Shown: piece by piece, positions 12,220 to 57,769 of the stretch
Numbering within the stretch: position 1 is the first letter of the stretch
Layout of the letters: each line of letters opens with the position of its first letter
Assembly (NCBI GenBank): GCA_020724585.1
Contig: DYGS01000001.1
Span: forward strand, 559,027 to 623,026
Direction: 5' to 3'
DNA: 64,000 nucleotides
Source of the DNA: Candidatus Microgenomatus sp.
GTDB taxonomy: Bacteria > Patescibacteriota > Microgenomatia > UBA8517
Notes under the pieces: generated by a model
Told to the model about the DNA's origin: nothing
The model's database searches: none
What the model saw: only the letters and a program-made list of their open reading frames with translations
Program-made: the position numbers and the translations under genes

Positions 12220-13011
12220 CTAGCAACTAGCAACTAAATTTTCAGCCAAACAGGAAATTGTAACTGGTCCAACCCCACCTGGGACAGGGGTAATAAAAGA
12301 TGCTTTATTCTCGCATCTTGGATCAATATCTCCAAATGGACTACCTACATCGATTAAGATAGCATCGTTTTTAACCATATCATCACTAATCAAATTAGCA
12401 ACACCTACTGCTGATATTAAAACCTGACCTTTAAAGGTTACACCCTTAAAGGGTGTTGTTTTGTCATATTGATTTACTACATATCTCATTTTTTGAAGTT
12501 TTTTAACCAGTGGCTTTCCAACCATACCAGAAGCACCAACTACATCAATTTCCTTTACTAACTTCTTTGTTTCAAAAAGTGCAAGCTTTAAAATTTCAAG
12601 GATTGCTTTAACAGTAGGTGGAATAAACTTACTATCTTCCCTCATTCCATCAACATCTTTAGTCAGTGCAATTGAATTTATAATTTGTAATTTGTAATTT
12701 GTAATTTTCGCCGGAAACGGAAGTTGGATCATTATTCCATTTACTGTTTTATCCTCGTTTAAAGATTTAATAAGACTTAAAACTTCACTTTTTTCTACAT
12801 TTTCAGGTAATCGATATATATCAAGTTCTGCTCCTATTTCTTCGATGTATTTTTTCTTCAAATTTACATACAAAATACTAGCAGTATCATTTCCAACTAA
12901 AATAGTTGCCATTTTAGGATACTTTCCTTTTTCTTTTAAGAGTTTTACATCACTAGTAAGTAATGTTTTCTTTTTAAGTGAATACGATCTACCGTCAAAA
13001 ACCACAGCCAT
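12220..13011 (-). CDS. folD: bifunctional methylenetetrahydrofolate dehydrogenase/cyclohydrolase
   Basis: MAVVFDGRSYS start (track ORF extends to 13056), IMIQLPFPAKI, KDVDG, PVPGGVGPVT. Carries the in-frame repeat KITNYKLQIINS. Confidence 0.85.
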   Translation of the reverse strand: MAVVFDGRSYSLKKKTLLTSDVKLLKEKGKYPKMATILVGNDTASILYVNLKKKYIEEIGAELDIYRLPENVEKSEVLSLIKSLNEDKTVNGIMIQLPFPAKITNYKLQIINSIALTKDVDGMREDSKFIPPTVKAILEILKLALFETKKLVKEIDVVGASGMVGKPLVKKLQKMRYVVNQYDKTTPFKGVTFKGQVLISAVGVANLISDDMVKNDAILIDVGSPFGDIDPRCENKASFITPVPGGVGPVTISCLAENLVASC

Positions 13012-13056
13012 ATTAGTGTATAATATCAAAACTCTGCCAAGAAAACTAACATACAT

Positions 13057-14217
13057 ATGTCGGGGGTTGAAACTTTTCGAAAACGGATTATTGAAACTTG
13101 TTTACCTGATCAACTTGAAAGATATCGGATTATACAACGTCAAATTCAAATGGCAACCGCGGCGTTTATGGAACCGAATCCATATGGAAAAAGAGATGCT
13201 ACAAGTGGACTCGGTAGTTGGTTTGTATGGCAATCACATCAACCATCATCGGTTGCAAATAAAATTGATCCGAATGATCCATTTGCTAAAACTGCAATGT
13301 TAATCGGGGCTATCAGTTTGAGAGCGTGGATTTATAAAAGCGACATTGATGGTTGGCACAACATTAGCACTTCAGATGTCTGGAAACGTACTCCACTTCA
13401 TGATTTAGCATCTAAATGTGACGAAATTGTTGCGGAAATTGTACCAGAGACAAAAGGTCGATTTGTTGGTATCAACCTGAAAGAGATGGCGGATAGACAT
13501 AAAGAGGGAATCCATAATAATGCAAATGAACACATAGTCGTTACAGGCCTAAATGCAGTTGGAAAAACAACAGTCTTAAATATTTTTTCAAGTTATTTAG
13601 CCAACTGCAACATCGGAGCAAAAGTTATAAAAATGCCAAGACCTGATGGACCGGTTTCAAAAGTAATTCTTCCAGCGCTAAACGGTGAACTAGGAATAGC
13701 CAAAGACGCACTTCAAATGGTCTTCTTAGCAGATGCACTAGATTTTGAACCTGAACCCGAAACATTAATCGTGTTTGATAGACATCCAATTGCTTCCGAA
13801 GCTTTTGTATATGGACCGGAAGAAATTGCAAGAACAGTGTTATCTACCCAAGAAATCAGAAATCAAATATTTCAAACTTTTATACTTGACCAACACCCTA
13901 TGTCATGCGCAAGGAGGGTTGCGGAAAGATCAACAGCCCCAAGGATTTTTGAAAACGATGTCGAAAAAATGACAGAACAACTAATAAGATTTGCGCGGCT
14001 AACAATGCTACCAGGAACTCACTGGATAAATAACGATATTCCTAATACTGGTGATTACTCTAATTACAAGCCCGAATTAATTGCAGCTGAAAGATTTATT
14101 GGTTCAGTATTTCATAGCGGAGTATTACAACGCAGACTCTTAAAGCAAGGAAGATTTACAAATTATTCAGAGGCATCTTCATTCCTTTATAATAAGGCTC
14201 ACACTTATATGAATTAA
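13057..14217 (+). CDS. thymidylate-kinase-like P-loop nucleotide kinase domain with a ~150-aa N-terminal extension of unknown function
   Basis: Walker A VVTGLNAVGKTT. TMK/dNK-type DRH motif LIVFDRHPIASEAFVYG (cf. TMK LCDRYxDSSLAYQG). ATG start verified. Locally higher GC than neighbours. Confidence 0.6.
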   Translation: MSGVETFRKRIIETCLPDQLERYRIIQRQIQMATAAFMEPNPYGKRDATSGLGSWFVWQSHQPSSVANKIDPNDPFAKTAMLIGAISLRAWIYKSDIDGWHNISTSDVWKRTPLHDLASKCDEIVAEIVPETKGRFVGINLKEMADRHKEGIHNNANEHIVVTGLNAVGKTTVLNIFSSYLANCNIGAKVIKMPRPDGPVSKVILPALNGELGIAKDALQMVFLADALDFEPEPETLIVFDRHPIASEAFVYGPEEIARTVLSTQEIRNQIFQTFILDQHPMSCARRVAERSTAPRIFENDVEKMTEQLIRFARLTMLPGTHWINNDIPNTGDYSNYKPELIAAERFIGSVFHSGVLQRRLLKQGRFTNYSEASSFLYNKAHTYMN

Positions 14218-14244
14218 TATCAAAAAAAACTTGCAGGAAGAAAA

Positions 14245-14331
14245 TTACTTTATTTTGTAAAAAAATTCACGACCAACTACAAACAAAACAGAAATACTTA
14301 CTATTAGTGCCAGTATTGCTAATAAATTCAT
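14245..14331 (-). CDS. small single-TM peptide, 28 aa (MNLLAILALIVSISVLFVVGREFFYKIK)
   Basis: Manual translation; ATGA overlap with preceding peptide; stop TAA at 14247..14245. Confidence 0.25.
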   Translation of the reverse strand: MNLLAILALIVSISVLFVVGREFFYKIK

Positions 14332-14444
14332 TTTCTTTTTTTTATTCTTCTTCCTTTGATAAAGTAGTAAAAAAATCCAAGAGCAAAAAGGCCGCTTACA
14401 ACTACCGCAAAATAATATGTATTTTCAAAAGTCCAGTATTTCAT
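14328..14444 (-). CDS. small single-TM peptide, 38 aa (MKYWTFENTYYFAVVVSGLFALGFFYYFIKGRRIKKRK)
   Basis: Manual translation. TAATG coupling to upstream ORF and ATGA coupling to downstream ORF; basic C-terminus. Confidence 0.3.
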   Translation of the reverse strand: MKYWTFENTYYFAVVVSGLFALGFFYYFIKGRRIKKRK

Positions 14445-14644
14445 TATTCTTCAATCAATAATAACAAAGATAAAGCCAAAAACACAAATGTCATAAAAAT
14501 TCCATACATAAAAAATGATAAGCCAATAAAATTTGAGCTTGAAGACACGAAAAATGGAGATATAACACTAGCTGTGAACCAAGCAACTGCCAACGTGTTA
14601 AAGAATAAGGACAATGAATCTATTTGTTTGGAATTTAATCTCAT
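14444..14644 (-). CDS. small two-TM membrane protein (66 aa from ATG; track ORF starts at TTG 14668)
   Basis: Hydrophobic helices. Stop TAA overlaps the next small ORF's ATG (TAATG). Confidence 0.35.
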   Translation of the reverse strand: MRLNSKQIDSLSLFFNTLAVAWFTASVISPFFVSSSSNFIGLSFFMYGIFMTFVFLALSLLLLIEE

Positions 14645-14686
14645 TACTAAAATTGTATCACTTTTCAAAAACTTGCAAGAAGAAAA

Positions 14687-15595
14687 TTATTCTTGAATCA
14701 ATCCCATTTTCCTTACTTTTTCAACCATCTCTTGAATTTCCCTTTTATTCGTTAATCCTGCATTTTTTGCTCTTTGTTCAATTTCTTCGGAAGAAAAATG
14801 CACATTTCTTGCAAGTAACATGTCTCTAAGTGTAGTAATTTCAAATTCGTTAATTTTAACAGCATTTAATTGATATTCTTCAAATGCTTGCCAGGTAATT
14901 GGAACTGAATCTTTGACAATATTGGCCATCGCCTCTGCATGTACCCTAATTTCATACTGTGCATGTTTGTCCATTCTTAAATTAAGTAAATGAAGAATAT
15001 TATGTAAATCGCACTTCCAATACCATTCCGTATAAACTGCGACAGGTAATGGTAACCGAGCAATCTCTCTTGCCAACCCAGCTCCAATATCTTCATCCAA
15101 AAGCCATAAATATAAATCATGTGAATTTCTGAAATGTGTTCTTAATTTATCTTGCACCTCTTGTGCTAAACTAGGATCTACTTCTGGACCACGTCCCTGC
15201 TTATTATCTGAAGACTGTACAGAAATAACGCCTGCTTCAGGTATATAGAACTCATCTCTTACAACTGAATATCTAGCAGAATATTCATTTAAGCTTGCGG
15301 TTCTATGTCGAACCCATTGCCTTGCTACAAATAACGGCATTTTTTGATGGAACTTGAATTCAACCATTTCGAATGGAGAAGTGTGTTCATGTCTTAATAA
15401 GTATCTAACTAAACCTTTTGTTTCATTAATCTTCCTTGTTTCTTGGCCATACGAAATCCTTGCCGCACGTTCTATATCAACATCGCCACCCATATAATCA
15501 AGCAAATTAACAAAGCCATGGTCTAATACTGGCACCGTGACATCAATCCATTTCTCTGCTCCTTCATTAATTGGTCGTCTTGTTAAATATTCCAT
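14687..15595 (-). CDS. thyX: flavin-dependent thymidylate synthase
   Basis: ThyX signature RHRTASLNEYSARY (RHRxxSxxxxSxRY). Confidence 0.9.
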   Translation of the reverse strand: MEYLTRRPINEGAEKWIDVTVPVLDHGFVNLLDYMGGDVDIERAARISYGQETRKINETKGLVRYLLRHEHTSPFEMVEFKFHQKMPLFVARQWVRHRTASLNEYSARYSVVRDEFYIPEAGVISVQSSDNKQGRGPEVDPSLAQEVQDKLRTHFRNSHDLYLWLLDEDIGAGLAREIARLPLPVAVYTEWYWKCDLHNILHLLNLRMDKHAQYEIRVHAEAMANIVKDSVPITWQAFEEYQLNAVKINEFEITTLRDMLLARNVHFSSEEIEQRAKNAGLTNKREIQEMVEKVRKMGLIQE

Positions 15596-15970
15596 TTATC
15601 TATTATCCCCACTACCATGTAATTTGTCTCTTTGCTTCCTTGATGAAAGTTTTTCAAAATTAATTTTAATTACATCTGAAAACCTCACTTCAAATTCAGT
15701 TGCAAGTTGTGAGATATACCAAACTACGTCGCCAAGCTCTTTTACTATTTCAACTTTTTTCTCGTCTGTTAATTTACCCTTATCATCACGGAACATTTTC
15801 TTAATCTTTTCTGACACCTCGCCAACTTCTCCTTGAAGTCCTATTAAAGGATAAACGAAACTTTTACCTATCTTTGGATAAACTGCAGTACTTTTACAAA
15901 ACTTTTGATATACATCAAAGTCTTTACCACTGAAAATGGCCAAGCTCTGCTTATAATTATTTTTTGACAT
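15596..15970 (-). CDS. MazG-like all-alpha nucleoside triphosphate pyrophosphohydrolase
   Basis: EVGEVSEKIKK ... ELGDVVWYISQLA metal-binding E-x-x-E helices typical of MazG/HisE-like NTP-PPases. Confidence 0.7.
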   Translation of the reverse strand: MSKNNYKQSLAIFSGKDFDVYQKFCKSTAVYPKIGKSFVYPLIGLQGEVGEVSEKIKKMFRDDKGKLTDEKKVEIVKELGDVVWYISQLATEFEVRFSDVIKINFEKLSSRKQRDKLHGSGDNR

Positions 15971-16403
15971 ATTTTTTTAGAAACTTATTTAAAATACTTT
16001 CAATTGTGTTTTCATCATAGAAACTAAACATGAATTTTTTGTAGTCAGTTCCATCTAAAAATGCTGAATATTTTTGTCCCTCTAAACTTTTGTGTCTTAA
16101 CATTAAAATAGGTTTATCCTGACTTTCTGCATATGCATGTTCATAGCCAACTCCGTGTGAATATTGTGAAACTTCAGAAACAATATAGTCAGACTCTCTA
16201 ATCCATCTTTTATCCCTTTTAACGATACCTCTTCTGGTTTTAAGTGTTGAAGAATTTGTATATTTTTTTGCTGTATTTACAGTTGTTGCTTTAGTCATTA
16301 CCCTATGACCATTTTTTTCAACTGCCTTTGCAATTGCATTAATTCCATTTTCAAAATCACGACCACCTGCTATTGATCCACAAAGGTAACATTTCAACTT
16401 CAT
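15957..16403 (-). CDS. DNPH1/Rcl-like 2'-deoxynucleoside 5'-phosphate N-hydrolase or nucleoside 2-deoxyribosyltransferase family protein
   Basis: YLCGSIAGGRDFENG vs Rcl YFCGSIRGGREDR; DYIVSEVSQYSHGVGYEHAYA vs DVVVAEVTQPSLGVGYELGRA. Confidence 0.7.
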   Translation of the reverse strand: MKLKCYLCGSIAGGRDFENGINAIAKAVEKNGHRVMTKATTVNTAKKYTNSSTLKTRRGIVKRDKRWIRESDYIVSEVSQYSHGVGYEHAYAESQDKPILMLRHKSLEGQKYSAFLDGTDYKKFMFSFYDENTIESILNKFLKKYVKK

Positions 16404-16456
16404 TAAAAATCATTTTACCTATTTAATTTTTAAAATCTAGATGGTAAAAATACATA

Positions 16457-17485
16457 ATGATAATTGGTATTACTGGTACATCTGGCGCGGGCAAAGGAAC
16501 TGTAGTTGAGTATTTAACGCAAAAAGGTTTTAAACATTATTCCGTAAGTGACTATTTAAGAGAATATCTTCAAAAGCAGAAAAGAGAGATAAATAGAATA
16601 AATCTTCAAGACGTTGGGAATGAACTTCGTAAAAAACATGGACCTGAGTACGTAGTTAAGAAACTTTATTTAAGAGCAAAAAAAGAAAGTATAAAAAGTA
16701 TAAATAGCATTATTGAGAGCATTAGAAATCCAAAAGAAGCTGAATTTTTAAAACAAAACGGAGCTATTTTAATTGCAGTTGAAGCAAAACTTGAAACAAG
16801 ATATAAAAGAATTAAAAAAAGAGCTTCAGACAAAGATTTTGTAACATTGAGGGAATTCAAAGCCCAAGAACAAAGAGAATTTCAAAATAGTGATAAAAAT
16901 TCTCAAAATATTCCAGAATGTATTAAACTTTCTGATTTTAAAGTGAACAATAACGAAAGTGTAAAAAAACTACAAATTCAAATAGGTAAAATAATAAACA
17001 CAAAAAAAGATAAATATGTTCGCCCTTCTTGGGATGAATATTTCGTTGACATTATGGTTGCCGCCTCAAAACGTGCAACATGCGATAGAGGCAGAGCTTC
17101 ATGTGTGTTTGTTAAAGATAAACAAATATTAGTAACAGGGTATGTTGGTTCCCCTGTTGGTTTTCCACATTGCGATGAAGTAGGACATCTTATGAAAAAG
17201 GTAATTCATGAAGATGGACACATAACTGAACATTGTATGAGGACAGTGCATGCTGAACAAAACGCAATATGCCAAGCTGCAAAACGAGGTGTTAGTCTTG
17301 ACGGTTCAACTTGTTATGTAAACATGACACCCTGTAGAACTTGTGCAATGCTTCTTATCAACTCAGGTATTAAAAGAGTCTATGCAGTAAACAAATATCA
17401 TGCAGGCGCTGAATCTGAAGAAATGTTTAAAAAAGCAAAAGTAAAATTAATTTTTAAAAATACTGAGGTTGTTAAATATAAATAA
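16457..17485 (+). CDS. fusion protein: N-terminal P-loop (deoxy)nucleoside/nucleotide kinase domain + C-terminal dCMP deaminase
   Basis: Walker A IIGITGTSGAGKGT. Deaminase motifs HAEQNAI and PCRTCAMLL (H-A-E...PCxxC zinc ligands). ATG verified. Confidence 0.8.
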   Translation: MIIGITGTSGAGKGTVVEYLTQKGFKHYSVSDYLREYLQKQKREINRINLQDVGNELRKKHGPEYVVKKLYLRAKKESIKSINSIIESIRNPKEAEFLKQNGAILIAVEAKLETRYKRIKKRASDKDFVTLREFKAQEQREFQNSDKNSQNIPECIKLSDFKVNNNESVKKLQIQIGKIINTKKDKYVRPSWDEYFVDIMVAASKRATCDRGRASCVFVKDKQILVTGYVGSPVGFPHCDEVGHLMKKVIHEDGHITEHCMRTVHAEQNAICQAAKRGVSLDGSTCYVNMTPCRTCAMLLINSGIKRVYAVNKYHAGAESEEMFKKAKVKLIFKNTEVVKYK

Positions 17486-17521
17486 TTTTGTTTTTAACAT
17501 TATGATTTGTCAAAATTTTCT

Positions 17522-18211
17522 TTAAAATCCGTTTGTTTGATACTCCATCTCTTTGAAGGTGATGTTTTTATCATCTACTATCTCAAAAATGTCCTTAATC
17601 TCATTAACTGGTTTTTTAAGATAGTCCCAGACTTTGTCTTTTTTAACCCATTTATATTTTCCCTCAGGGTTGTTAGTTAATTTACCTTTAGGGTTTATAA
17701 ACTTGCACGCAAAAAATATTTTATCCTCCAATAAATGATTTTTAAAATCCTTAATTTTATAATGTCTTATCGCAAATAGTTTAGGTAAACCATTTAAACT
17801 TGTCTCCTCTAAAAGTTCGCGTCTTGCTGCATCAAGTATATTTTCTCCTCGCTTTACTTTGCCAGTTGGGAATCCTTGGTAGCCATAGAAAGGTGATTTA
17901 AGTCTAGTATAAAGGAGATAATAATCATCATCTTTTCGTTTATCAATACAGACTATTAATACAGAAACTTTAGCTTGTACTTTTATCCTTTCATCACCAA
18001 TATCCATTCTATTGGCAACTTCTTTTCCAAGTAGTGTTAGCTCATATACTGATCCTGACTTACTTACATAGTTAAGACCAATTAGTTTGTCTAAGTGAAA
18101 CGCAAACTGGCCGCTCTCAATACCCTTTGGTTTAATTTGAGAATACTTAAGGCCACGCGAGTAAAGTAACTTTTGGAGAATGTTAATCTGCAAACTATGT
18201 AGGTCTTTCAT
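17522..18211 (-). CDS. Nudix hydrolase with N-terminal winged-HTH domain
   Basis: Nudix box GKVKRGENILDAARRELLEETSL (Gx5Ex7REUxEExGU). Confidence 0.7.
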   Translation of the reverse strand: MKDLHSLQINILQKLLYSRGLKYSQIKPKGIESGQFAFHLDKLIGLNYVSKSGSVYELTLLGKEVANRMDIGDERIKVQAKVSVLIVCIDKRKDDDYYLLYTRLKSPFYGYQGFPTGKVKRGENILDAARRELLEETSLNGLPKLFAIRHYKIKDFKNHLLEDKIFFACKFINPKGKLTNNPEGKYKWVKKDKVWDYLKKPVNEIKDIFEIVDDKNITFKEMEYQTNGF

Positions 18212-18897
18212 GATGTTTTAATAAACTTAATATTCAGCCTATAGGGTTTATTTTGAAATGGCAGATAACTTGGGTATTTTATCACAAATGAATCTGGGAC
18301 ACCTGTTTCCAAAATGGTACTTACTTTAAAACCATGTTTAGTAAATGTATTTATGTAAGTCTGTAAAGTTCTTGCTTTAAAAACAACGCTCAAGTTATCG
18401 TCTTTTGCTATTTTGCCTGTGACTAAATTCTCATTTAAATATGAGTTTTTATCTAACCATTTCATTGGGTGAGTAACAGAAATAACCAATATTCCATTTT
18501 TATTCAAAACTTTGTAGGACTCTTTAGCAATGTTTTCAATATCCCTAAGATACATTAAAACCAATTTACAAGTAACTAGATTAAAATTTGTATTTAATGC
18601 GGGAAATTCTTTTTCTAAATCAAATTGAAGGAATTTTGTATTTTTGCAAACTTTTTTCGCCTGCATTAACATTTTGTATGAAAGGTCTACCCCAACAACA
18701 CGTTGATATCTAGTTTCAAGTTCTTTAGTAAACCTTCCATCACCACAACCTAAGTCAAGTGCATTTCCAAAATTGTCACACAAACTTAGAATAGACAATG
18801 AATTTACTAATCTCTCATATGCAAAATCAGCATTTATATCATTTAAAACGCTTTTTTTATATTTTGGAAATAAACTGTCCCACAAAAATTTACTCAT
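18208..18897 (-). CDS. class I SAM-dependent methyltransferase
   Basis: Motif I LDLGCGDGRFT; 4-nt overlap with the upstream Nudix gene. Confidence 0.7.
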   Translation of the reverse strand: MSKFLWDSLFPKYKKSVLNDINADFAYERLVNSLSILSLCDNFGNALDLGCGDGRFTKELETRYQRVVGVDLSYKMLMQAKKVCKNTKFLQFDLEKEFPALNTNFNLVTCKLVLMYLRDIENIAKESYKVLNKNGILVISVTHPMKWLDKNSYLNENLVTGKIAKDDNLSVVFKARTLQTYINTFTKHGFKVSTILETGVPDSFVIKYPSYLPFQNKPYRLNIKFIKTS

Positions 18898-36279: not shown

Positions 36280-36352
36280 AAAATATATTGCCTAGATAGC
36301 TCAGTTGGTAGAGCATTCCCATGGTAAGGGAAAGGTCTCGAGTTCAAATCTC
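36280..36352 (+). tRNA. tRNA-Thr (anticodon GGU)
   Basis: Acceptor GCCTAGA/TCTAGGC, D arm GCTC..GAGC, anticodon stem TTCCC/GGGAA with loop ATGGTAA, T arm TCGAG TTCAAAT CTCGA. Confidence 0.8.
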
Positions 36353-36375
36353 GATCTAGGCTCAAACTAATTTTC

Positions 36376-37572
36376 TTAAAATTCTTTTTTAAAATTGTTC
36401 AAAATCGCCTCCGCTAGTGCACTCGACAAAACGGTTGGAACAGCGTTTCCAACCTGTAGATTTCTATCCTGTCTTGATCCATAAAACTTATATGAATCTG
36501 GAAAACACTGTATTCTTGCTCCCTCTCTTGTAGTTAACGGTCTTGGTGCTTTAGGATGAATACACCTAGACGATGATGGTGTTCCTAAATTTCTGGTAAT
36601 CGTGGTTGAAGGTCTATTCCACCAAAGACGGCAATAGGTATTTTTAAAACCTGAGGATGGGCGTAAATCTTCAGGCAAATCCTTAGGTGTCCCACCGTCT
36701 GGCAATAACTCCATGATTTTTACAAGCTTTGGATTATTTCTAGGTGCATTATGGTCCATTAATTTTATCGGGGCGTTTATTCTCATTTTTCTTTGAAATT
36801 CATTTTTAGGCCCTGAAGCATATTCAAAACTCTCTTCGCCCGATTTTATAAAGGGAAGGTCACTAATAGCATCCTCAAGTGTCAAATAAGGTTTTAGCAA
36901 CCCATCAAATAATAATTGTGTATTCGATGGGTCATAATGTGTAGGCTCAGGATATTTGAAGTCACGATTAAGTTTCGACCCAATAATTACCACCCGCTCC
37001 CTTATTTGAGGTGCGCCAAAATCAGCCGCGTTAAGAACTTTATACCACACCTTGTAGCCTAATGACCGAAAAAGTGTGAGTATCGTCATTAGTAGTTCTC
37101 CGCGTTGCATTGAAAGCAATCCTTTTACATTTTCAAATAGAAAAACTCTTGGATTAAACTCACGCAGAACTCTGTAATATTCCTGGAATAGCTTACCTCT
37201 CGGATCATCTATTAGTCTTTTACCAACAGTTGAGTAAGCTTGGCATGGCGGACCACCAATCACAATATCTACCTCATTATCATAAACTCCCAAATCTTTC
37301 TTTATTTTATCAAAGTTAAAGTATTTAATATCTTCCGTATAGACTCTTACTGTTGGGTGATTTAATGAATAGGCTTTTGCCATGTTAGGCAATATTTCAT
37401 TAGCGGCAATTATTTCAAACTGTTCACAATTCGAAAAACCATAACTCAATCCGCCTACCCCACAAAATAGATCTATAACTTTAAGTTTTTTAGCCATAGT
37501 TCTAATCAAATTCAATTTCTTTATATTTAATTGGTGGTTCTGTAATTTTCCAAACAAAATAGTTTTGGTCAA
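36376..37572 (-). CDS. dcm: DNA (cytosine-5)-methyltransferase (type II R-M methylase)
   Basis: Motif I DLFCGVGG, motif IV GGPPCQAYS, motif VI ENV, motif VIII QRR. Likely true start at internal Met (MAKKLKVIDLF, ~37497), which gives a small overlap with the upstream gene. Confidence 0.85.
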   Translation of the reverse strand: MTKTILFGKLQNHQLNIKKLNLIRTMAKKLKVIDLFCGVGGLSYGFSNCEQFEIIAANEILPNMAKAYSLNHPTVRVYTEDIKYFNFDKIKKDLGVYDNEVDIVIGGPPCQAYSTVGKRLIDDPRGKLFQEYYRVLREFNPRVFLFENVKGLLSMQRGELLMTILTLFRSLGYKVWYKVLNAADFGAPQIRERVVIIGSKLNRDFKYPEPTHYDPSNTQLLFDGLLKPYLTLEDAISDLPFIKSGEESFEYASGPKNEFQRKMRINAPIKLMDHNAPRNNPKLVKIMELLPDGGTPKDLPEDLRPSSGFKNTYCRLWWNRPSTTITRNLGTPSSSRCIHPKAPRPLTTREGARIQCFPDSYKFYGSRQDRNLQVGNAVPTVLSSALAEAILNNFKKEF

Positions 37573-38278
37573 TATTAAAAACTGTCTGACCCTCCATTTG
37601 CTGCCTTGTTATCCAATTAATATTATTTTCAGATATTTGATTTAATTTTAAGAAGGCTGTCTGCCCATTATATAAATCTATATGAATTAAAATTGTCTCG
37701 ATACCCTCTAGTTCAAAAGCCTTTTTTGCTTCCAATACTTTGTGTTGTTTAATATCGTTTATTCCGCTAAAACCAGACTGCATTTCCACCTTTACTCTTT
37801 TATTATTTTCAAATTTTATTTCTAAATCAGCCTTTGGAGTTTTTTTGAACGAATTTATTTTCCTTAAGTCATCACTCCCTACTGGTTTAATTTTAGTTTT
37901 ATCAACCTCAAATATTAAACTTAGTGCTTTTGTGAAGTAATTTGAAATTACAAATCCTCTCATCCACGAAAAATAAACCTGTTCTGGTCGTCTTCCCAGA
38001 TTATTTAATCTGGGCAATATATTATTCTTTTTTATGATATCAAACGGTTCATCAATATACTTTCGACCAAACGAATTTAGATTATCGACTTTAATTTGGT
38101 CTGCAACGACAAAACTGAGATTCTTGATAATTTGGTAAAGGCGTTCATTGAGTAATTTGATATAATCAAAATCAATAGCAGGAACAACATCTTTAGCACT
38201 CAAAAAATTTTTAAAATTAGTTTGACTACTAAAGCCAAATTTTTGACGGTATTGTTTAAAATCTTCAGCGGCAAACAT
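37502..38278 (-). CDS. putative cognate type II restriction endonuclease
   Basis: 258-aa ORF immediately upstream of and overlapping the C5-methyltransferase in the same orientation. No family assignment is possible from sequence alone. Confidence 0.45.
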   Translation of the reverse strand: MFAAEDFKQYRQKFGFSSQTNFKNFLSAKDVVPAIDFDYIKLLNERLYQIIKNLSFVVADQIKVDNLNSFGRKYIDEPFDIIKKNNILPRLNNLGRRPEQVYFSWMRGFVISNYFTKALSLIFEVDKTKIKPVGSDDLRKINSFKKTPKADLEIKFENNKRVKVEMQSGFSGINDIKQHKVLEAKKAFELEGIETILIHIDLYNGQTAFLKLNQISENNINWITRQQMEGQTVFNIDQNYFVWKITEPPIKYKEIEFD

Positions 38279-40111: not shown

Positions 40112-40182
40112 AAGGGTGTCGTTCAATGGTAGGACATCGGTCTCCAAAACCGATAATGATAGTTCGATTCTATCCACCCTTG
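40112..40182 (+). tRNA. tRNA-Trp (anticodon CCA)
   Basis: Acceptor AAGGGTG/CACCCTT, D arm GTTC..GGAC, anticodon stem TCGGT/ACCGA with loop CTCCAAA, T arm GATAG TTCGATT CTATC, discriminator G. Confidence 0.75.
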
Positions 40183-40433
40183 CAAGAAAAGAAACACGCT
40201 CGGACAGGGTCGCCCCTGCCGGCGGGCGACCAAACAAAAAGAGCGAATTGAAGCCATTTTTGAGTACTGGTTTGAGGTGGCGGTTCTCCAAAAAGAAGTT
40301 CGATCCGGCGTTTTTTGCATGATTGGCTAAATCATGCAAATTATTTTTTGCGCGCGCGATTTTTGCCCCTGTTTTCGCGATTTTGATAAGTTCTAAAAGA
40401 GGTTCGAGTCTCCTTCCACCATTTTGATTAAAT

Positions 40434-41747
40434 TTAGACTTTTGGAGAGCAAATCTTTTGTTTTTCTTCAAAAATTTCATTCTTCTTTTTCTTGTAAACT
40501 TCAGGCTCAACAATATGCTCCAAATATCCATCAAGTAAGGTTTCCTCTTGATCCTCAAGATTTGAAATTTTTGATTGCAATTCTATTAATCTTTGAGAAG
40601 CAGATTGCTCTTCAATCAGTTTGTCTTTCTCATATAGATCCATGAATATTTTATATTCCTCGTCATCTATAGAGCATTTTAAGACCATGTTTCTAATCTG
40701 CTTCTCAAGTTCTACATCTGTTATGTATTTCTGTCTACAGTTCCCTAAACTTTTTGTGCATCTATAATAATTAAAAACAACTTTCCTGTTGGTTCTTTTG
40801 TAATATCTAGGATGGGTTTCAGCTGTAATAGCCGAACCACACTCAGCACACTTTATAAAACCGGTAAAAGGAAAGTTGTGTCCTTTAAGTCTCGGTCTTG
40901 CTAGTCTCTCCATTTGCTTTTGGACTTTGTTGAAAAGGTCTTTTGAAATGAAAGTTTTATGTGATCCTTTATACAAAACTCCGTTGTACAAAAACGTACC
41001 AACGTAAAATTTATTAGATAGCATATTTTTGACAGTATCAACTTTTAATTCCCTTTCACCTTTTCTATATATTCCACACTTAAATAACATTCTGGCAATT
41101 TCAGAATATGAAGTACCACCTTCTGCAAATTTTTCAAAAGCCTTTTTAACATATTTGGATTTTTCATCATCTACTTCAATTGATTTAATTTTCAAATCGT
41201 TGAAATATCCAATAGGAGCAAGTTTTGGCCAAACACCACGCCTTAGTTTTTCACGCAATCCTCGCTTTACATTTTCGCTTAAATTGTCAACATAATACTT
41301 GCTCTGTCCAAATGCGATTGAAAGCATAAACTTACCCTGTGGAGTATTATCAAACCAAAAAGTTGGGAACTTCAAGTCTAAAAGTTTGCCGGTATCTAAT
41401 AAATAAACAATTCTTCCGCCATCTATTGAATTTCTGGCAAGTCTATCTGGATGCCAAGAAAGAATTGCATTAGCTTCTCCTTTTTCAATTCTTTTTAAGA
41501 CCTCGGCAAACTTTTCTCTTCCAGGTTCTTTTGCGGTTTTACTTTCAGTTACAAAATCAATGACTTGAAGTTTTTCCCTTGAAGCAAACTCTTTTAATTC
41601 AGATAACTGTCCGTCAATAGACAACACCTGTCTATCTTTTTCATCAGTTGATTTTCGGCAATAACAAATGTATTTAATCATGTGGACAGAGTTCTCCTGT
41701 TTTCTAAAATTTTCGAGTTTTGTTTTTCTTCTTTTTTGTTTTGGCAA
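40434..41747 (-). CDS. large serine recombinase (phage-integrase/transposase type)
   Basis: N-terminal resolvase domain with catalytic Ser in YCRKSTDEK. Central recombinase domain. Zn-ribbon CAECGSAI...YYRCTKSLGNC. C-terminal coiled coil. Confidence 0.85.
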   Translation of the reverse strand: MPKQKRRKTKLENFRKQENSVHMIKYICYCRKSTDEKDRQVLSIDGQLSELKEFASREKLQVIDFVTESKTAKEPGREKFAEVLKRIEKGEANAILSWHPDRLARNSIDGGRIVYLLDTGKLLDLKFPTFWFDNTPQGKFMLSIAFGQSKYYVDNLSENVKRGLREKLRRGVWPKLAPIGYFNDLKIKSIEVDDEKSKYVKKAFEKFAEGGTSYSEIARMLFKCGIYRKGERELKVDTVKNMLSNKFYVGTFLYNGVLYKGSHKTFISKDLFNKVQKQMERLARPRLKGHNFPFTGFIKCAECGSAITAETHPRYYKRTNRKVVFNYYRCTKSLGNCRQKYITDVELEKQIRNMVLKCSIDDEEYKIFMDLYEKDKLIEEQSASQRLIELQSKISNLEDQEETLLDGYLEHIVEPEVYKKKKNEIFEEKQKICSPKV

Positions 41748-41847
41748 CTAAAACCAGAGTTAAAATTGCCCTTCAATCTGGTCTTTTCTGCAAGTGGCCG
41801 AATTCGGGCGGCCACGAAGCGAGAACGAATTTCCCTGTGGGCAGACT

Positions 41848-41935
41848 TGTACCGAAAAACTCGTACCGCTCTATTGTCGTAGCTCCGGCTCGTCACTTCG
41901 TTCCTCGCCTCCGCAAACGCCGGATCGAATTGTCC
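41848..41935 (+). repeat. GC-rich dispersed repeat, shortened copy D
   Basis: ...GTACCGAAAAACTCG...CCGGCTCG...CTCGCCTCCGCAAA...GGATCGAAT aligned to copy A. Confidence 0.5.
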
Positions 41936-42037
41936 TCTTGTTTTTAAAAACAAAACGAGAAAATTTTCGACAGCGACAAGCTGTCGCGCGCTATATTTTT
42001 ACTTTACTCTGTGAAGAAATTTATTCAAGCTTTAGAG

Positions 42038-42328
42038 TTATCTATCACCACATTGAGGGTGATATGAAGTTCTGATCGTAGACTCTATCCCTAGGCGCAT
42101 TTGCTCACCTGTCACTCTCAAAATATATAGATGTATATTGCCAGTTTTGCACGCTTCCCATTGTGACTGTCTTGGATGATTGGGGAATCTGTTGTTCAAA
42201 TCCTCTGTTTGTCCGACATCAAGCAGCCTCGGTTCAGCATCAATTATCGTATATACTGCCGCAATGGTATTGGTAAAACCCCTATAAGGATCGTACGGAC
42301 CTTCAAAGTTGTAACCTGATATATTCAT
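42038..42328 (-). CDS. small GIY-YIG nuclease-family protein
   Basis: AVYTIIDAEPRLLDVGQTEDLNNRFPNH = GIY...YIG...R...H pattern. Confidence 0.5.
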   Translation of the reverse strand: MNISGYNFEGPYDPYRGFTNTIAAVYTIIDAEPRLLDVGQTEDLNNRFPNHPRQSQWEACKTGNIHLYILRVTGEQMRLGIESTIRTSYHPQCGDR

Positions 42329-42347
42329 ACTTTCTTTGTTTTAGGGA

Positions 42348-42773
42348 TTGACAATCATAAAACATTGTAATAATATTACAACAGAGATGACAAAAAGTCA
42401 AGAGTTTTCTGCCCAAAACTTTGGTAGTTTCTTCAGAGATAAAAGGATTTCCCTGGGATTAAGTTTACGCAGTTTCTGTGAAAGATATGGCTACGATCCA
42501 GGAAACATAAGCAGACTCGAAAGAAACATACTTTCCCCAAGCATAGATGATGAGAAATTGGCAGGATATGCATCAGCTTTAAAAATACAAAGGGATAGCG
42601 AAGAGTGGGTACTTTTCCATGATTTAGCCCATGCCGCAAAGGGCAAAATTCCATCAGATATTAAAAATGACGAGGAAGTAATAAACATGCTTCCTGCATT
42701 TTTCCGAACAATGAGGAATAAGAAAATAGACAAGCAAAAATTGGAAAAGCTAATTCAACTACTTAAAAAATGA
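42348..42773 (+). CDS. XRE-family HTH transcriptional regulator
   Basis: FGSFFRDKRISLGLSLRSFCERYGYDPGNISRLERN helix-turn-helix. Confidence 0.75.
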   Translation: MTIIKHCNNITTEMTKSQEFSAQNFGSFFRDKRISLGLSLRSFCERYGYDPGNISRLERNILSPSIDDEKLAGYASALKIQRDSEEWVLFHDLAHAAKGKIPSDIKNDEEVINMLPAFFRTMRNKKIDKQKLEKLIQLLKK

Positions 42774-43394
42774 ATGAAAGATCCCACCTCCATATCCCTC
42801 ACCGAAGTCATAAATGCGGCTCGCGAATTCTCCAAAAAATATAACTCTGACTTAACCATTCCAACACCCATTGAAGATATTGTAGAAATACAACTTGGTA
42901 TAAAATTAATTCTTATTCAAGGATTAATACGTAACTTTAGTGTCAATGCTTTTATTACCCAAGATTTTTCTACGATTGTGGTTGATGAATACATGTTCTC
43001 GAAACAACCCGACAGAATTAGATTTACAATCGCGGAAGAAGTAGGTCATTTATTTCTACATAAAGACTGGTATTCTCTAAATGGCCCTAAATCGATTGAA
43101 GACTACTTAAAGTTTCAAGAAACAATTGACGGGAATCTTTACAGCTTTATAGAGAGACAGGCAAAAACTTTTGCGGGAATGATTTTAATTCCATCACCAG
43201 TGATCGAGCAAAAGTGGGCCGAGTTTGCTCAGAAAAATAACTTAAAAACACCATGCTTATTCTATGATTTACCTGACACCTTTCCAGACTTTGCTCGTTT
43301 ATTTCAAGTTAACCAGGTAAGTTTATTAATAAGACTCAAGGGCTTAAAATGTGTGGAGCTTCCGGACGGGTTTTGGAAAAAACTCAAAAAATAA
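42774..43394 (+). CDS. ImmA/IrrE-family metallopeptidase (COG2856-like)
   Basis: HExxH-like IAEEVGHLFLH; adjacent to and co-oriented with the XRE regulator, as in ImmR/ImmA modules of mobile elements. Confidence 0.6.
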   Translation: MKDPTSISLTEVINAAREFSKKYNSDLTIPTPIEDIVEIQLGIKLILIQGLIRNFSVNAFITQDFSTIVVDEYMFSKQPDRIRFTIAEEVGHLFLHKDWYSLNGPKSIEDYLKFQETIDGNLYSFIERQAKTFAGMILIPSPVIEQKWAEFAQKNNLKTPCLFYDLPDTFPDFARLFQVNQVSLLIRLKGLKCVELPDGFWKKLKK

Positions 43395-43404
43395 TACTAC
43401 TATT

Positions 43405-43794
43405 TCAATTCCTGCTTTCCAAAATTTTTTTCAGTTTTTCTAATATGTCTATTGTAAAAGGATCTGAAAGTTCTCCTTCATAAACCCATTCATAATATTC
43501 CATTTCACAAGAGTTGTTATCTAGTGGAGTAAATGTATATCTGACACGATAAGTTGAATTCTTTTGAGCAAAGGTAAATGTTTTGTCTTTTTCAAATTCT
43601 GTAACTTCATATTCGCTCCATACTCCTTCTTTATTTACATTTCTATATATACTTACAACTTTAACTGGCCATTCATTTGTTTCTTCTTTAACAATTGAAT
43701 TAACCCAAAGAGGTGTATTTTTCGGATCAGTAGTAAAGTTAAAAACTTCAGAAACTGGTTTATTTATCTTTATTGTTAGTTTTAAGTCTTTCAT
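43405..43794 (-). CDS. SRPBCC (START/Bet v1/AHSA1-like) domain protein
   Basis: 129 aa; beta-rich pattern [13 protein letters not shown]...[14 protein letters not shown] typical of polyketide-cyclase/AHSA1 family. Confidence 0.5.
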
Positions 43795-43813
43795 TTGATT
43801 AATAAGTATAACT

Positions 43814-45058
43814 TTACTCTGTAGATACTTCTGGTACGCGTAACTCTTCTTCCTTTTCTTTTGCTAAACTTATTTTCGCGTCTTTTTTCTTTAGAGAAAG
43901 ATAAATAGTAATAGCAATTGCAATAAGTATGGACCAAGCTACTAGAAAGTACTCAAGTTTATTTTGCGAATTCAAACTACCTATAATTGGAGCTAGTGCA
44001 ACATATGGTAAAGTACGCAAAAATGAACCAACAGAAAGTACGGTTGCACGCTGGCTTTCGTCTGTGCGGTAGTTTAATACTTCACTCATAAAAGGAACTA
44101 GTACATGTTCTCCAGCATATAAAGTTAGAATTACGATGTAACCCCACCATCCAATGTTCGCAATTGATAGCAGTAAGCTTGTGGCAGCTAAACCAGCTAT
44201 TAAAGTTAAAACTCTCTTTTCACTTAAATTATCTGCGTTTTTATGCATATATCCTAAAATACCAACGGTTATCAAACTACACGAGGCAATAACTATTGAC
44301 CCAACAAATGGACTAAAATGAAATCTATCTATTAAAACTAGACGAAGTAGCCCCCACCCAGCTGCATAGAATAAACCTTGTACTGTAATGATTATTGGGA
44401 CATAAAGAGCCAGTTTTTGTTTACTAAATTCAGTAAAGCCATTTTTTATACCTAAGAGATGCTCACGAAGTTCAAAGAAAGCTTTCTTTTTGTCTGCTTT
44501 TACTCTTTTGTCTTTAACAGACCAAACAATGGCGACAGAGCTTATCAATGAAAATCCTGTCAGTATCCATGGAATCCTAGGGTCAATATTGTGAAGCCAA
44601 CCTCCGAAAATTGTCGCAAACATACCCCCAATTAAGGCTATTTGAGAACCTCTGGTTATAAGTTTCCTCCAATCAGGAGAAGATTCCTTAAATTTCAAGT
44701 TGTCAAAAAATAATGCCTCGTCTGCGCCAGACACAAAAGATACACCAATCATCATTGTCGCCTGTCCAAATATAAATTGTCCGAGACTACTACCAAACGC
44801 TTGTATTACCAAACCAGAGCCAGCCAAAAACTGACCAAGTCTAACCATCTTGTCTCTTCCAAATTTGTCTGCCATTACGCCAGATGGTACCTCTGCCATT
44901 AGACCGATAGCAAATGCAACGCTATCTAAAATTCCAACTTGGCTGTCAGTTATATAAATTCTATAAAAATATAACCAAACAGCACCTAAAAACCAAAGAT
45001 TGGTAAGAAGCTTATAGATAAGAAACCTGGTGGAAAGCCACTTTTGACTTTTTGTCAT
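43814..45058 (-). CDS. MFS transporter
   Basis: 12 predicted TM helices; MFS motif A-like [16 protein letters not shown]. Confidence 0.8.
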
Positions 45059-45126
45059 TCTTCGACAATTATATCTCTAGGGAGTTCCTTTTTCACTACA
45101 AATAAATTATTGATATAATTCTAAAA

Positions 45127-45549
45127 ATGAAACTCCCCTGGTATGTTGTTCCAAAAACTGCCTTATTTGACTGGATTCCCTTGCTCGGAAAGTCTACTGC
45201 AAATAGTATTGGGCCATTTATCTTTATACCAACTAAAATATATATAGACTTAAAATCAGAAAATCCTAATCCCAAACACATTGCACTTCTAATTCATGAA
45301 GAAACTCACAGAAAAAGGCAAAAACAAATAGGATTTTTAAAGTTTGGAATGAAATACTTGTTTAATTCAAACTTTCGCTTTCAAGAAGAATTGATAGCCG
45401 TAAAAGAAGCTATGAAATATTTAAAGAAAAATAAAATAAAATTTGATTTTGACAAAAACTCAAAATTTCTTTCAAGTTATGTATATCTTTGGCCAGTCTC
45501 TAAAAAATATGCTGAAAAGGAACTAAAAAGAGTTTGGAATGAATTGTAG
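45127..45549 (+). CDS. HExxH-motif putative zinc metallohydrolase (DUF45/YgjP-like)
   Basis: ALLIHEETHRKRQKQ; family assignment weak. Confidence 0.35.
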   Translation: MKLPWYVVPKTALFDWIPLLGKSTANSIGPFIFIPTKIYIDLKSENPNPKHIALLIHEETHRKRQKQIGFLKFGMKYLFNSNFRFQEELIAVKEAMKYLKKNKIKFDFDKNSKFLSSYVYLWPVSKKYAEKELKRVWNEL

Positions 45550-45647
45550 CAGGGAGTTCATTAATTTCTACAAATACATTGTTCGCGCTGGGCTGGTTGG
45601 GGCAAGAACAATGTCAGGCGTTAGCCTGACCAAATCGCGCGCAAAAA

Positions 45648-45729
45648 AGCGGAGGCGAGGCCAAAGGCCGAGCCGGAGCGGAAGGTTCGGGTTATTCGAA
45701 TTGAGTTCGAATTTTTCGATACAACATTG
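45648..45729 (-). repeat. GC-rich dispersed repeat, internally deleted copy C
   Basis: AGCGGAGGCGAGGCCAAAGGCCGAGCCGGAGCG identical to copy B; flanking palindrome GTCAGGCTAACGCCTGAC. Confidence 0.6.
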
Positions 45730-45760
45730 CAAAGAAGGGAAAACAATATCATCAAAAGTC

Positions 45761-46885
45761 TCATTTTAATTTCCAATATGTAGTTGAATTTGTAATCACT
45801 TTTTGTCCCTCTCCATTTATATATGAATTGTGAACCGATTCGATAGGATCACTATTACCATCAACATGCGGAATAAATCCAAATTCACCACCTGAAACTG
45901 TCATAATAAATTCATCTCTTTTGAATAAATCCTGTGTCATGTAATGAAGCCCCTGAAAGTGAAGTGGAACACTGTCAGTTATATCGTCCTGTTCATAATA
46001 CTCTGAAAAAGCAAAAACCACATCTTTTCCTCTAAATACATTAGACAGGGCTCTGAGCGTATCAATTGCAAGATGTCTTTCTTCATGCAGGATATAACCA
46101 ATATGGACAATCAATCTACCATCTCCCACCCTCTTGGCAATTTCTTCCAAACCTTTTTCATCTTTCATGTCCAAAACACTAATTTCATATCTTTCCTCTT
46201 CAATTCCAGCATTTTGCAAATTCTCTCCCGCTGTCTCAAAAACCGCAGGATTTATATCAGTAACTAATGCTCGCACATCCGGATATGCTAATAAAAATTT
46301 TTTTGAAAAATTTCCTGATCCCGATCCTAATTCTAGAAGAATTTGTCTGTCAGGAAATTTATCACGCAAATCTCTAACAATACTATTAGATGCAGGTGAC
46401 ATCAAGGCGTCTGATGCTAGATGGTTTATGACAGGATTTCTGTATACATTCCCACCAAATCCATACGAGATTTCCCCCCTCACTATTTTGGCAAAGTTTT
46501 CAAGTAAACTCTTTTCATAACCGGAAATCAAGAGGGCAAAGGAAGCGCTATGTAATAATGGGGCCTCATATTGGCCACCAAACTCTCTCAAAAACCTCTT
46601 TTTATCCCAACCAGCAACTATTGCATAAAGTTGAAGATTTGCAAGCTCATGAGTTAGTTTTTTAAAATGTATCAGCTCTTGCGGTGAAGGTATTACCCCT
46701 CCATTTACCATCTTGAACTGTTCCAAAAATTTTAAAGCGCCAGTATAAACCTTTCCTTCTTTATCAAATTCTTGATCTTTAAGCTCATCAAGTCCAGAAA
46801 GTAAATAGTGGGCAATAGCTCCAGACAAAACTAGCTGAGGACTTAATTTTTCTCTCATTTCTGCTCTTTTGGCTATTTCTTGCAT
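45761..46885 (-). CDS. class I SAM-dependent (O-)methyltransferase with N-terminal dimerisation-like domain
   Basis: Motif I LELGSGSGNF; acidic motif II VLDMKDE; COMT-like architecture. Confidence 0.65.
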   Translation of the reverse strand: MQEIAKRAEMREKLSPQLVLSGAIAHYLLSGLDELKDQEFDKEGKVYTGALKFLEQFKMVNGGVIPSPQELIHFKKLTHELANLQLYAIVAGWDKKRFLREFGGQYEAPLLHSASFALLISGYEKSLLENFAKIVRGEISYGFGGNVYRNPVINHLASDALMSPASNSIVRDLRDKFPDRQILLELGSGSGNFSKKFLLAYPDVRALVTDINPAVFETAGENLQNAGIEEERYEISVLDMKDEKGLEEIAKRVGDGRLIVHIGYILHEERHLAIDTLRALSNVFRGKDVVFAFSEYYEQDDITDSVPLHFQGLHYMTQDLFKRDEFIMTVSGGEFGFIPHVDGNSDPIESVHNSYINGEGQKVITNSTTYWKLK

Positions 46886-47021
46886 ATAGATTTTTAAAAA
46901 TTTTTCAATTCTAGCACAATTTAAAAAAATTTGTTATAATTCCCCAAATCCTATAGTAAACACAAGTGTGCTATTTGTGTGATAGAATAATTCTCTGACT
47001 TGGTGCATAAAATTTAACAAT

Positions 47022-56422: not shown

Positions 56423-56425
56423 AAT

Positions 56426-57763: not shown

Positions 57764-57769
57764 GTAACT

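Follow-up and report, generated by a model that had tools for sequence, protein, structure and literature searches.

A probable housekeeping dTTP-supply island with interchangeable parts, and its two-part thymidylate-kinase-like protein, in a Microgenomates-type bacterium

How does a bacterium of very small genome keep itself supplied with thymidine nucleotides? Ultra-small Patescibacteria rely on scavenged nucleotides, and the balancing of their deoxynucleoside triphosphate (dNTP) pools is poorly documented. The question is raised by five adjacent genes on contig DYGS01000001.1 of Candidatus Microgenomatus sp., within a stretch of 64,000 nucleotides (64 kb) that was analysed as a whole and is called the window below; all coordinates are those of the window. 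The first-pass annotation of this DNA had read the five genes as a self-contained dTTP-supply module, consisting of a 386-residue protein resembling thymidylate kinase (TMK) with an additional N-terminal domain (working name P1), the flavin-dependent thymidylate synthase ThyX, a MazG-like pyrophosphohydrolase, a DNPH1/Rcl-like protein and a P-loop kinase fused to a dCMP deaminase. A check of the open reading frames (ORFs) of the window found all five at the coordinates claimed, the quoted motifs were located residue by residue in the five proteins, and profile and structure searches placed every gene in the family named for it; the ThyX, MazG, Nuc_deoxyrib_tr and dCMP_cyt_deam_1 profiles passed their cut-offs, and Thymidylate_kin was sub-threshold. 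Based on the family assignments, and on the thymidylate module observed at this slot in each relative examined, the reading as a dTTP-supply module holds: with a probability of about 70%, these genes serve as a housekeeping island for the supply of dTMP and dTTP in a small-genome bacterium of the Patescibacteria/Microgenomates type. It is not self-contained, since no nucleoside diphosphate kinase is encoded in the window.

The layout of the genes is compact (Table 1). The DNPH1-like gene, mazG and thyX, all on the minus strand, follow each other with a 14-nt overlap and then a 0-nt gap; they are predicted to be one operon, from which the fusion gene diverges at a distance of 53 bp. Chance does not account for this gene order: the same-strand genes overlap or abut, and relatives have the cluster too. 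The five genes are present where they had been placed, but the module reaches further than had been drawn, to folD, which is divergent from P1 and encodes the enzyme that partners thymidylate synthesis in folate one-carbon metabolism. The longest folD ORF starts at 13056, one base from the ATG of P1. The conserved FolD N-terminus is found at the Met at 13011, where the minus strand reads ATGGCTGTGGTTTTTGACGG, and the folD gene of the related contig L006 is called from the same internal Met. The true start is therefore likely to be 13011, in which case the spacer between folD and P1 is 45 bp long and holds a TATAAT box. In the 53-bp divergent interval a weak -35/-10-like match lies at 16429-16458, and a strong one was observed on the minus strand within the P1 coding region (13156-13129); in a promoter and terminator scan of 12800-17700, however, such matches were no more numerous than in shuffled sequence. 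An Rfam scan of the window returned four tRNAs only, with no riboswitch near the cluster.

Table 1. Features of the island and its immediate flanks (window coordinates)
Feature	Position	Strand	Remarks
P1 gene, 386 aa	13057-14217	+	
P1 N-terminal domain, ~155 aa, all-alpha	13057-13521	+	without known relatives
P1 thymidylate-kinase-fold domain	13522-14217	+	Walker A (GLNAVGKT) 13546-13569; KMPRPDGP 13630-13653; FLADALD 13723-13743; DRH 13777-13785; LID (..R..PRIFE) 13939-13953
thyX, flavin-dependent thymidylate synthase, 302 aa	14687-15595	-	dUMP to dTMP; last gene of operon
Small phage-type MazG-like NTP pyrophosphohydrolase, 124 aa	15596-15970	-	Pfam MazG, phrog_229
DNPH1/Rcl-like 2'-deoxynucleoside 5'-phosphate N-glycosidase homologue, 148 aa	15957-16403	-	first operon gene; overlaps mazG by 14 nt
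Divergent intergenic region, 53 bp	16404-16456		presumed promoters for both operons
Kinase-dCMP deaminase fusion gene, 342 aa	16457-17485	+	
Fusion N-half: P-loop kinase (dNMP-kinase/UPF0200-like)	16457-17014	+	AAA_18, phrog_139, PRK08356
Fusion C-half: Zn-dependent dCMP deaminase	17021-17485	+	HAE 17249-17257; PCRTC 17330-17344
folD, methylene-tetrahydrofolate dehydrogenase/cyclohydrolase	12220-13011	-	Pfam THF_DHG_CYH 102.9 bits; C-terminal domain 99.8 bits
AT-rich insert, ~440 bp (442-bp repeat spacing)	14225-14689		between convergent stops of P1 and thyX
NUDIX hydrolase with N-terminal winged-helix domain (DUF7347)	17522-18211	-	Pfam
Class I S-adenosylmethionine (SAM) methyltransferase	18208-18897	-	Pfam; overlaps NUDIX gene

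The strongest evidence for a thymidylate island comes from comparative genomics. About 14 related contigs (numbered within L001-L025) were surveyed for the same chromosomal slot (Table 2). The backbone rseP-frr-tsf-rpsB ... topA-dprA-pbp2-mreB is kept in all of them, its proteins being 60-79% identical, and from the folate genes to topA, thymidylate genes are present in every relative examined, in a set that varies. Where a locus reaches far enough on that side, the island is flanked by folate genes (FolD, SHMT or FTCD). The conservation in relatives on which the first-pass annotation had made its reading depend is thus observed. Within this conserved frame the parts are exchanged step by step: ThyX or ThyA plus DHFR, MazG or Dut, P1 or Tmk, and, for deamination, a kinase plus dCMP deaminase (fused or split) or a dCTP deaminase. 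MazG stands at the position of Dut when L009 is compared with L008, or the window with L024 and L025, and genes of the route made of dCTP deaminase, Dut, ThyA, DHFR and Tmk occupy the slot of the window genes in L001, L008 and L009. Compared with that route (dCTP deaminase and dUTPase, or a bifunctional DCD-DUT, followed by ThyA/DHFR and Tmk), the net conversion of dC nucleotides to dUMP, dTMP and dTDP would be identical, whereas the window uses a non-orthologous set of kinase-dCMP deaminase, MazG, ThyX and P1. That the occupants of the slot are interchangeable supports the reading as dTMP/dTTP supply. The repeated replacement of steps by non-orthologous equivalents among close relatives, at one chromosomal site, also provides a natural experiment in which function can be read from the slot, as with MazG for Dut and the AvcD-like kinase-deaminase for dCTP deaminase.

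Table 2. Thymidylate genes in the same chromosomal slot of related contigs (DCD, dCTP deaminase; fusion, kinase-dCMP deaminase; MTase, methyltransferase)
Contig	P1 identity to window	Gene content
Window / L005-7	100%	FolD / P1 / ThyX MazG DNPH1-like / kinase-deaminase / NUDIX MTase
L003 / L019	57%	SHMT FolD FTCD_C / P1 / long ThyX MazG DNPH1-like / fusion
L016	83%	FolD / P1 / pterin-binding DUF4346 protein
L008	69%	P1 / DHFR ThyA Dut DCD
L001	62%	FolD / P1 / DCD
L018	58%	SHMT / P1 / DHFR ThyA
L021	55%	FTCD / P1-DHFR-ThyA, one strand, ends overlapping
L009	46%	P1 / Tmk DHFR ThyA MazG DCD dNK
L010	44%	P1 / Tmk .. dNK ThyA
L011	32%	long ThyX TK .. P1
L012	absent	FTCD Tmk ThyX MazG / fusion
L024	absent	FolD Tmk ThyX Dut / kinase + deaminase, two ORFs
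L025	absent	HAD DNPH1-like Dut ThyX Tmk SHMT FolD; kinase, deaminase split

Families, folds, catalytic residues, operon layout and the modular synteny are observed directly. From these a flow of nucleotides may be proposed, whose substrates, direction and order of steps we infer, as we do the parts played by the DNPH1-like protein and by the kinase half of the fusion. The fusion, together with the small MazG, would turn dC nucleotides into dUMP, either by MazG converting dCTP to dCMP, followed by deamination of dCMP to dUMP, or by the AvcD-like fusion converting dCTP to dUTP, followed by hydrolysis of dUTP to dUMP by MazG. ThyX would then methylate dUMP to dTMP with methylene-tetrahydrofolate supplied through the adjacent FolD (plus SHMT in relatives), and P1 would phosphorylate dTMP to dTDP. 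The DNPH1-like N-glycosidase, apparently translationally coupled to MazG and ThyX, would most likely clear unwanted or surplus dNMPs, serving either pool sanitation or the release of deoxyribose-5-phosphate and base. A conversion of dC into dT nucleotides makes sense in a genome of 34.5% GC, the value of the 64-kb window.

The two central enzymes of this route are well placed in their families. ThyX scores 187.6 bits against TIGR02170 (cut-off 87.9) and 182.7 bits against Pfam Thy1, and its RHRxxSxxxxSxRY motif is present as RHRTASLNEYSARY at residues 96-109. A second kind of ThyX was observed in the same slot of three relatives: the long proteins (527-585 aa) of L003 (9220-10938), L011 (102-1685) and L012 (4787-6544) give weak or double Thy1 matches, and since tblastn of them against the window, including the 302-residue ThyX, found no similarity, two unrelated ThyX types appear to share one slot. 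MazG matches PF03819 with 38.1 bits (gathering cut-off, GA, 22) and phrog_229 with E 9e-32, and its metal ligands are intact (ExxE at 48-51, with E48 and E51; ExxD at 78-81, with E78 and D81) and invariant in four orthologues. With its single MazG domain and ExxE...ExxD ligands, it resembles the small phage-type MazG proteins and MazG-like/dimeric dUTPases, and it matches 533 phage records at identities of up to 49.5% (an actinophage MazG), many of them from cyanophages. Unlike phage MazG, it is chromosomal, lies in an operon with ThyX and takes the place of Dut in related islands. For the MazG of cyanophage S-PM2, dGTP and dCTP are the favoured substrates, with dTTP and dUTP hydrolysed as well (PMC6850273). 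By homology, the window MazG is likely to convert dCTP and dUTP to dCMP and dUMP, and at least the dUTP to dUMP activity is favoured because MazG occupies the Dut position.

The 148-residue protein carries the motif YLCGSIAGGRDF at residues 6-17 and passes the superfamily cut-off of PF05014 (Nuc_deoxyrib_tr) with 34.8 bits (GA 28.8). The first-pass annotation had left room for a plain nucleoside 2-deoxyribosyltransferase. The protein is closer to DNPH1/Rcl: all 12 of its PDB sequence matches are Rcl/DNPH1 chains (best E 4e-13, nearly full length), and no classical deoxyribosyltransferase chain was found among PDB matches at E<=1. In the alignment, Y6, D64 and E88 correspond to the human triad Y24, D80 and E104, and S82 and S113 to the phosphate-binding serines (human S98 and the serine of the helical extension). 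With the triad and both serines kept and an equal size, it would be a DNPH1-type enzyme. It differs from human DNPH1 in being a bacterial protein co-transcribed, as predicted, with MazG and ThyX, and in having K37 and A38 at the positions of human E55 and H56 (T-K-S in the P0216 homologue). In human DNPH1, E55 and H56 serve the recognition of hydroxymethyl-uracil and the activation of water, and the known preferred substrate is 5-hydroxymethyl-dUMP (PMC10603095). The missing E55/H56 dyad leaves the substrate and even the type of reaction loose, a first point that weighs against the supply reading as drawn above. Homologues are present in L003 (83% identity) and L025, and searches of phage genomes gave zero matches. 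P0216 (368 aa) is a natural fusion of a DNPH1-like protein, 49% identical to that of the window, with a Microgenomates-type thymidylate kinase, and this Rosetta-stone link ties the DNPH1-like enzyme to the thymidylate pathway. On a less likely reading, the enzyme might exchange bases on dNMPs instead of simply hydrolysing them.

The fusion of a kinase with a dCMP deaminase, which the first-pass annotation had picked out, is confirmed, but it is no novelty: the architecture is that of DcdV/AvcD-type enzymes, known already and very common. In the kinase half (GTSGAGKGT at residues 7-15), AAA_18 scores 50.2 bits over residues 3-125, the dNMP kinase family phrog_139 matches with E 1.9e-16 and PRK08356 with 62.9 bits, and the PDB matches are 3h0k and 3lw7. 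The deaminase half scores 81.6 bits against dCMP_cyt_deam_1 (PF00383, GA 25) over residues 191-310, matches the dCMP deaminase of S. mutans (2hvv) with E 2.8e-25, and keeps the HAE...PCxxC zinc site (HAE at residues 265-267, PCRTC at 292-296). As predicted from its family, it would make dUMP, or dUTP, from dC nucleotides. The subfamily of about 342 aa has more than 1900 homologues; those in Bacteroidales reach about 54% identity.

ThyX, MazG, DNPH1-like proteins and kinase-deaminase fusions are thus of known kinds, and the clustering of thymidylate genes is unsurprising; since nucleotide metabolism of the ordinary sort makes up most of it, the value of the cluster is moderate. The sole new element is the P1 family, the one truly uncharacterised family singled out here, in which a kinase of TMK fold is combined with an unprecedented and obligatory N-terminal domain in a narrow clade of Patescibacteria. 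The first-pass annotation had called the N-terminal domain uncharacterised and had staked its reading of P1 on the kinase fold. Structure prediction with AlphaFold was confident for the full-length protein (pLDDT 81, pTM 0.83; N-terminal domain pLDDT 80.8), and a TMK fold was found; the N-terminal domain is without known relatives, and residues 1-155 gave zero profile matches. The TMK motifs (Walker A at residues 164-171, DRH at 241-243, and the LID arginines R291 and R296 in ..R....PRIFE) vary little or not at all among 17 to 21 members of the family. Since the Walker A Gly and Lys (G169/K170), the family-wide K(M/F)PRPDG motif, the DRH arginine (R242), the LID arginines and PRIFE with its E299 are conserved, catalysis by P1 is plausible, as judged from its residues. 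The extra helical N-terminal domain probably has a structural or regulatory role.

The P1 family is tiny. Only 18 clusters of homologues were found among 5.8 billion sequences, all of 384-402 aa save one truncated entry (335 aa), and one of 185,579 GTDB species representatives, a Patescibacteria metagenome-assembled genome, encodes P1. A profile of the N-terminal domain alone matched 23 of 1.84 billion representative proteins, and those not obviously cut short (about 320-400 aa) all have two parts like P1; three short proteins with the N-terminal domain only (P0019, P0023 and P0030) were rejected as standalone domains, as they look like truncated fragments. No relatives were found in viral contigs, and a literature search for a kinase combining a TMK fold with this N-terminal domain found no paper describing one. 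The locally elevated GC content noted earlier for P1 is real but weak (0.381, the mean of the window being 0.345 with sd 0.031); 11.6% of windows of the same size match or exceed it, and a foreign origin inferred from GC was dropped as the signal is too weak.

Is P1 then the thymidylate kinase of the island? It most likely fills the role of Tmk, as a rare, lineage-specific family that would have taken the Tmk position. The three relatives without P1 (L012, L024 and L025) have a canonical Tmk in the slot, between the folate genes and ThyX, and none is found in P1 loci with at least 10 kb of context; this complementary distribution indicates functional equivalence, and from it a specificity of P1 for dTMP is somewhat favoured. 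In the 64-kb window, tblastn with three canonical Tmks gave a best E of 0.16, and in a search with the L012 Tmk the window's own 744,514-bp contig was absent among the 120 matches listed of 477, which is suggestive only. Several points weigh against this assignment. P1 falls below both curated Tmk cut-offs, with 25.8 bits against Thymidylate_kin (PF02223, GA 27; match confined to residues ~157-308) and 22 bits against TIGR00041 (cut-off 83.25), and differs from Tmk (S. aureus 4dwj, E. coli 4tmk) in its ~155-residue helical N-terminal domain and in an extension, also helical, at the C-terminus. Two of the positions at which solved TMKs contact dTMP are changed throughout the family, with the acidic residues D226 and E247 nearby. 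The arginine that contacts O4 of thymine, R78 in the TMKs of both E. coli and P. falciparum, aligns with Ala227 of P1, invariant as Ala in the 17-member alignment A1, and Arg occurs there in 0 of 21 members of alignment A3; the acidic P-loop residue, E12 in E. coli, is replaced by Asn166, and nearly all family members have Asn. Finally, in the divergent P1 loci L009 and L010, a canonical Tmk stands directly beside P1. These points would fit a P1 that belongs to the thymidylate module as another deoxypyrimidine-nucleotide kinase or a regulated variant, such as a dCMP kinase feeding dCTP deaminase or MazG, a kinase of dUMP or modified dUMP, or an enzyme whose obligatory, conserved N-terminal domain senses a nucleotide or folate; in L001, moreover, the sole pathway neighbour of P1 is a dCTP deaminase. 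Such a role is rather doubtful in view of the complementary distribution. In addition, the same alignment shows no Arg at this position in the canonical Tmks of L009 and L012; the Arg/Ala substitution is therefore a weak discriminator and a hint only on specificity. The Tmk of L010 (1707-2312, minus strand), with GSGSTT in place of GxGK[ST]T, carries Ser where Walker A normally has Lys and, judged from this sequence, may lack activity. A broader form of the idea, tentative and less likely, is that P1 founds a new family of nucleotide kinases with substrate or regulation unlike Tmk and that the DNPH1-like enzyme might exchange bases on dNMPs; P1 could then act on dCMP/dUMP or on dNMPs broadly, or else phosphorylate dTMP under the control of a nucleotide or folate signal received by its N-terminal domain, which would explain the coexistence with canonical Tmk in some genomes.

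Two readings of the cluster as a whole lead away from housekeeping supply. The fusion, MazG and the NUDIX protein could together deplete nucleotides against phage in the manner of DcdV/AvcD. DcdV, a PLK+DCD enzyme, deaminates dCTP and dCMP (bioRxiv 10.1101/2021.03.31.437871). The defensive DcdV/AvcD enzymes are 532-576 aa long, require both domains and use both substrates. The window fusion has the same order of domains and homology across both, so that deamination of dCMP and/or dCTP is expected; it matches the PADLOC dCTPase model with E 6.4e-46 (155 bits, residues 1-314) and NCBIfam NF041025 'anti-phage dCTP deaminase' with E 4.5e-35. The latter score, however, is 121.4 bits against a cut-off of 400, the protein is 200-230 aa shorter than the defensive enzymes, and the 53 bp upstream are too short for an RNA like the 174-nt AvcI/DifV antitoxin. 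Its context is core synteny rather than a defence island or mobile element: in many relatives it shares the slot with ThyX, folate genes and Tmk, an ordinary dCTP deaminase can substitute for it there, the Bacteroidales homologue lies between purE and housekeeping genes, and in close relatives the halves are separate ORFs with an exchangeable kinase half and a near-identical standalone dCMP deaminase. A defensive role is thus very improbable, and the comparison suggests that housekeeping relatives of the defensive AvcD/DcdV enzymes are widespread. The first-pass annotation had also hedged that the cluster might make a hypermodified pyrimidine nucleotide for DNA. The enzyme families do overlap the base-modification sets of phages, MazG is of phage type, the contact residues of P1 are atypical, and the substrate preference of DNPH1 described above points the same way. 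Yet ThyX scores 100 bits above the FDTS equivalog cut-off with its motif kept and is exchanged in relatives for ThyA plus DHFR, the classical thymidylate cycle; the island holds no hydroxymethylase, glycosyl- or amino-acyl-transferase or DNA-modifying kinase; and neither P1 nor the DNPH1-like protein has homologues in viral collections. The hedge therefore finds no support, and such a pathway is barely credible here. Housekeeping supply of dTMP and dTTP remains the reading that we prefer.

The slot also bears traces of recombination. Between P1 and thyX, the AT-rich insert (GC 0.275) has at its two edges the copies of a 23-nt direct repeat (14225-14247, 14667-14689), which agree at 22 of 23 positions; by chance, 0 such matches are expected. 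Inside the insert, 17 nt at 14443-14459 duplicate the 3' end of thyX with its stop codon, and there are ORFs of 129 aa (plus strand, an annotated gene in public records) and 74 aa (minus strand, resembling a protein with two transmembrane segments), for neither of which a family match was found. L016 and L003 lack the insert, their next gene beginning 18-26 bp after P1, and it is probably the scar of a rearrangement or insertion. The AT-rich gap was also considered as the decayed C-terminal end of a long ThyX, an idea dismissed because the long ThyX proteins show no similarity to the window. At the island's opposite end, the segment 16404-17485 of the window was compared with L024 (7389-8504). 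The deaminase half is 94.5% identical in amino acids and 88% in nucleotides and the 53-bp spacer 92% in nucleotides, against 68-79% for the backbone proteins, whereas the kinase half is only 26% identical to its counterpart, which is a separate overlapping ORF there, and split in L025 too. Standalone deaminases of 163-169 aa from several assemblies group with the fusion's deaminase half when clustered at 90% identity. These patterns suggest that the kinase partner was swapped as a cassette and that recombination was recent. Based on the mosaic identity, the insert scar and the gene replacements, the slot appears to be a recombination hot spot.

Beyond the fusion gene lies the pair of NUDIX hydrolase and methyltransferase (Table 1), which also stands beside the island in L003 and L008 and is absent in L001, L012, L024 and L025. 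Its membership in the pathway is uncertain; the NUDIX protein could be a nucleotide-responsive regulator. Elsewhere in the window, a C-5 cytosine DNA methyltransferase (Pfam 244 bits) and an overlapping 258-aa ORF without family match (36376-38278, minus strand) lie beside tRNA-Thr (36290-36363) and perhaps form a restriction-modification pair; acted on by the dCMP deaminase, 5-methyl-dCMP released as DNA turns over would yield dTMP directly. A large serine recombinase (40434-41747) adjoins tRNA-Trp (40112-40183) and is followed by a pair of HTH_3 and M78 (IrrE-like) peptidase genes (42348-43394) and several ORFs without family matches, and the region 40112-46900 is probably an integrated mobile element. 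Finally, an AbiEii-type nucleotidyltransferase toxin (61 bits) with an overlapping upstream ORF of 208 aa, likely the AbiEi antitoxin (58414-59831, minus strand), adjoins a cluster associated with ATP-grasp and 7TM-transglutaminase proteins at 54077-58387.

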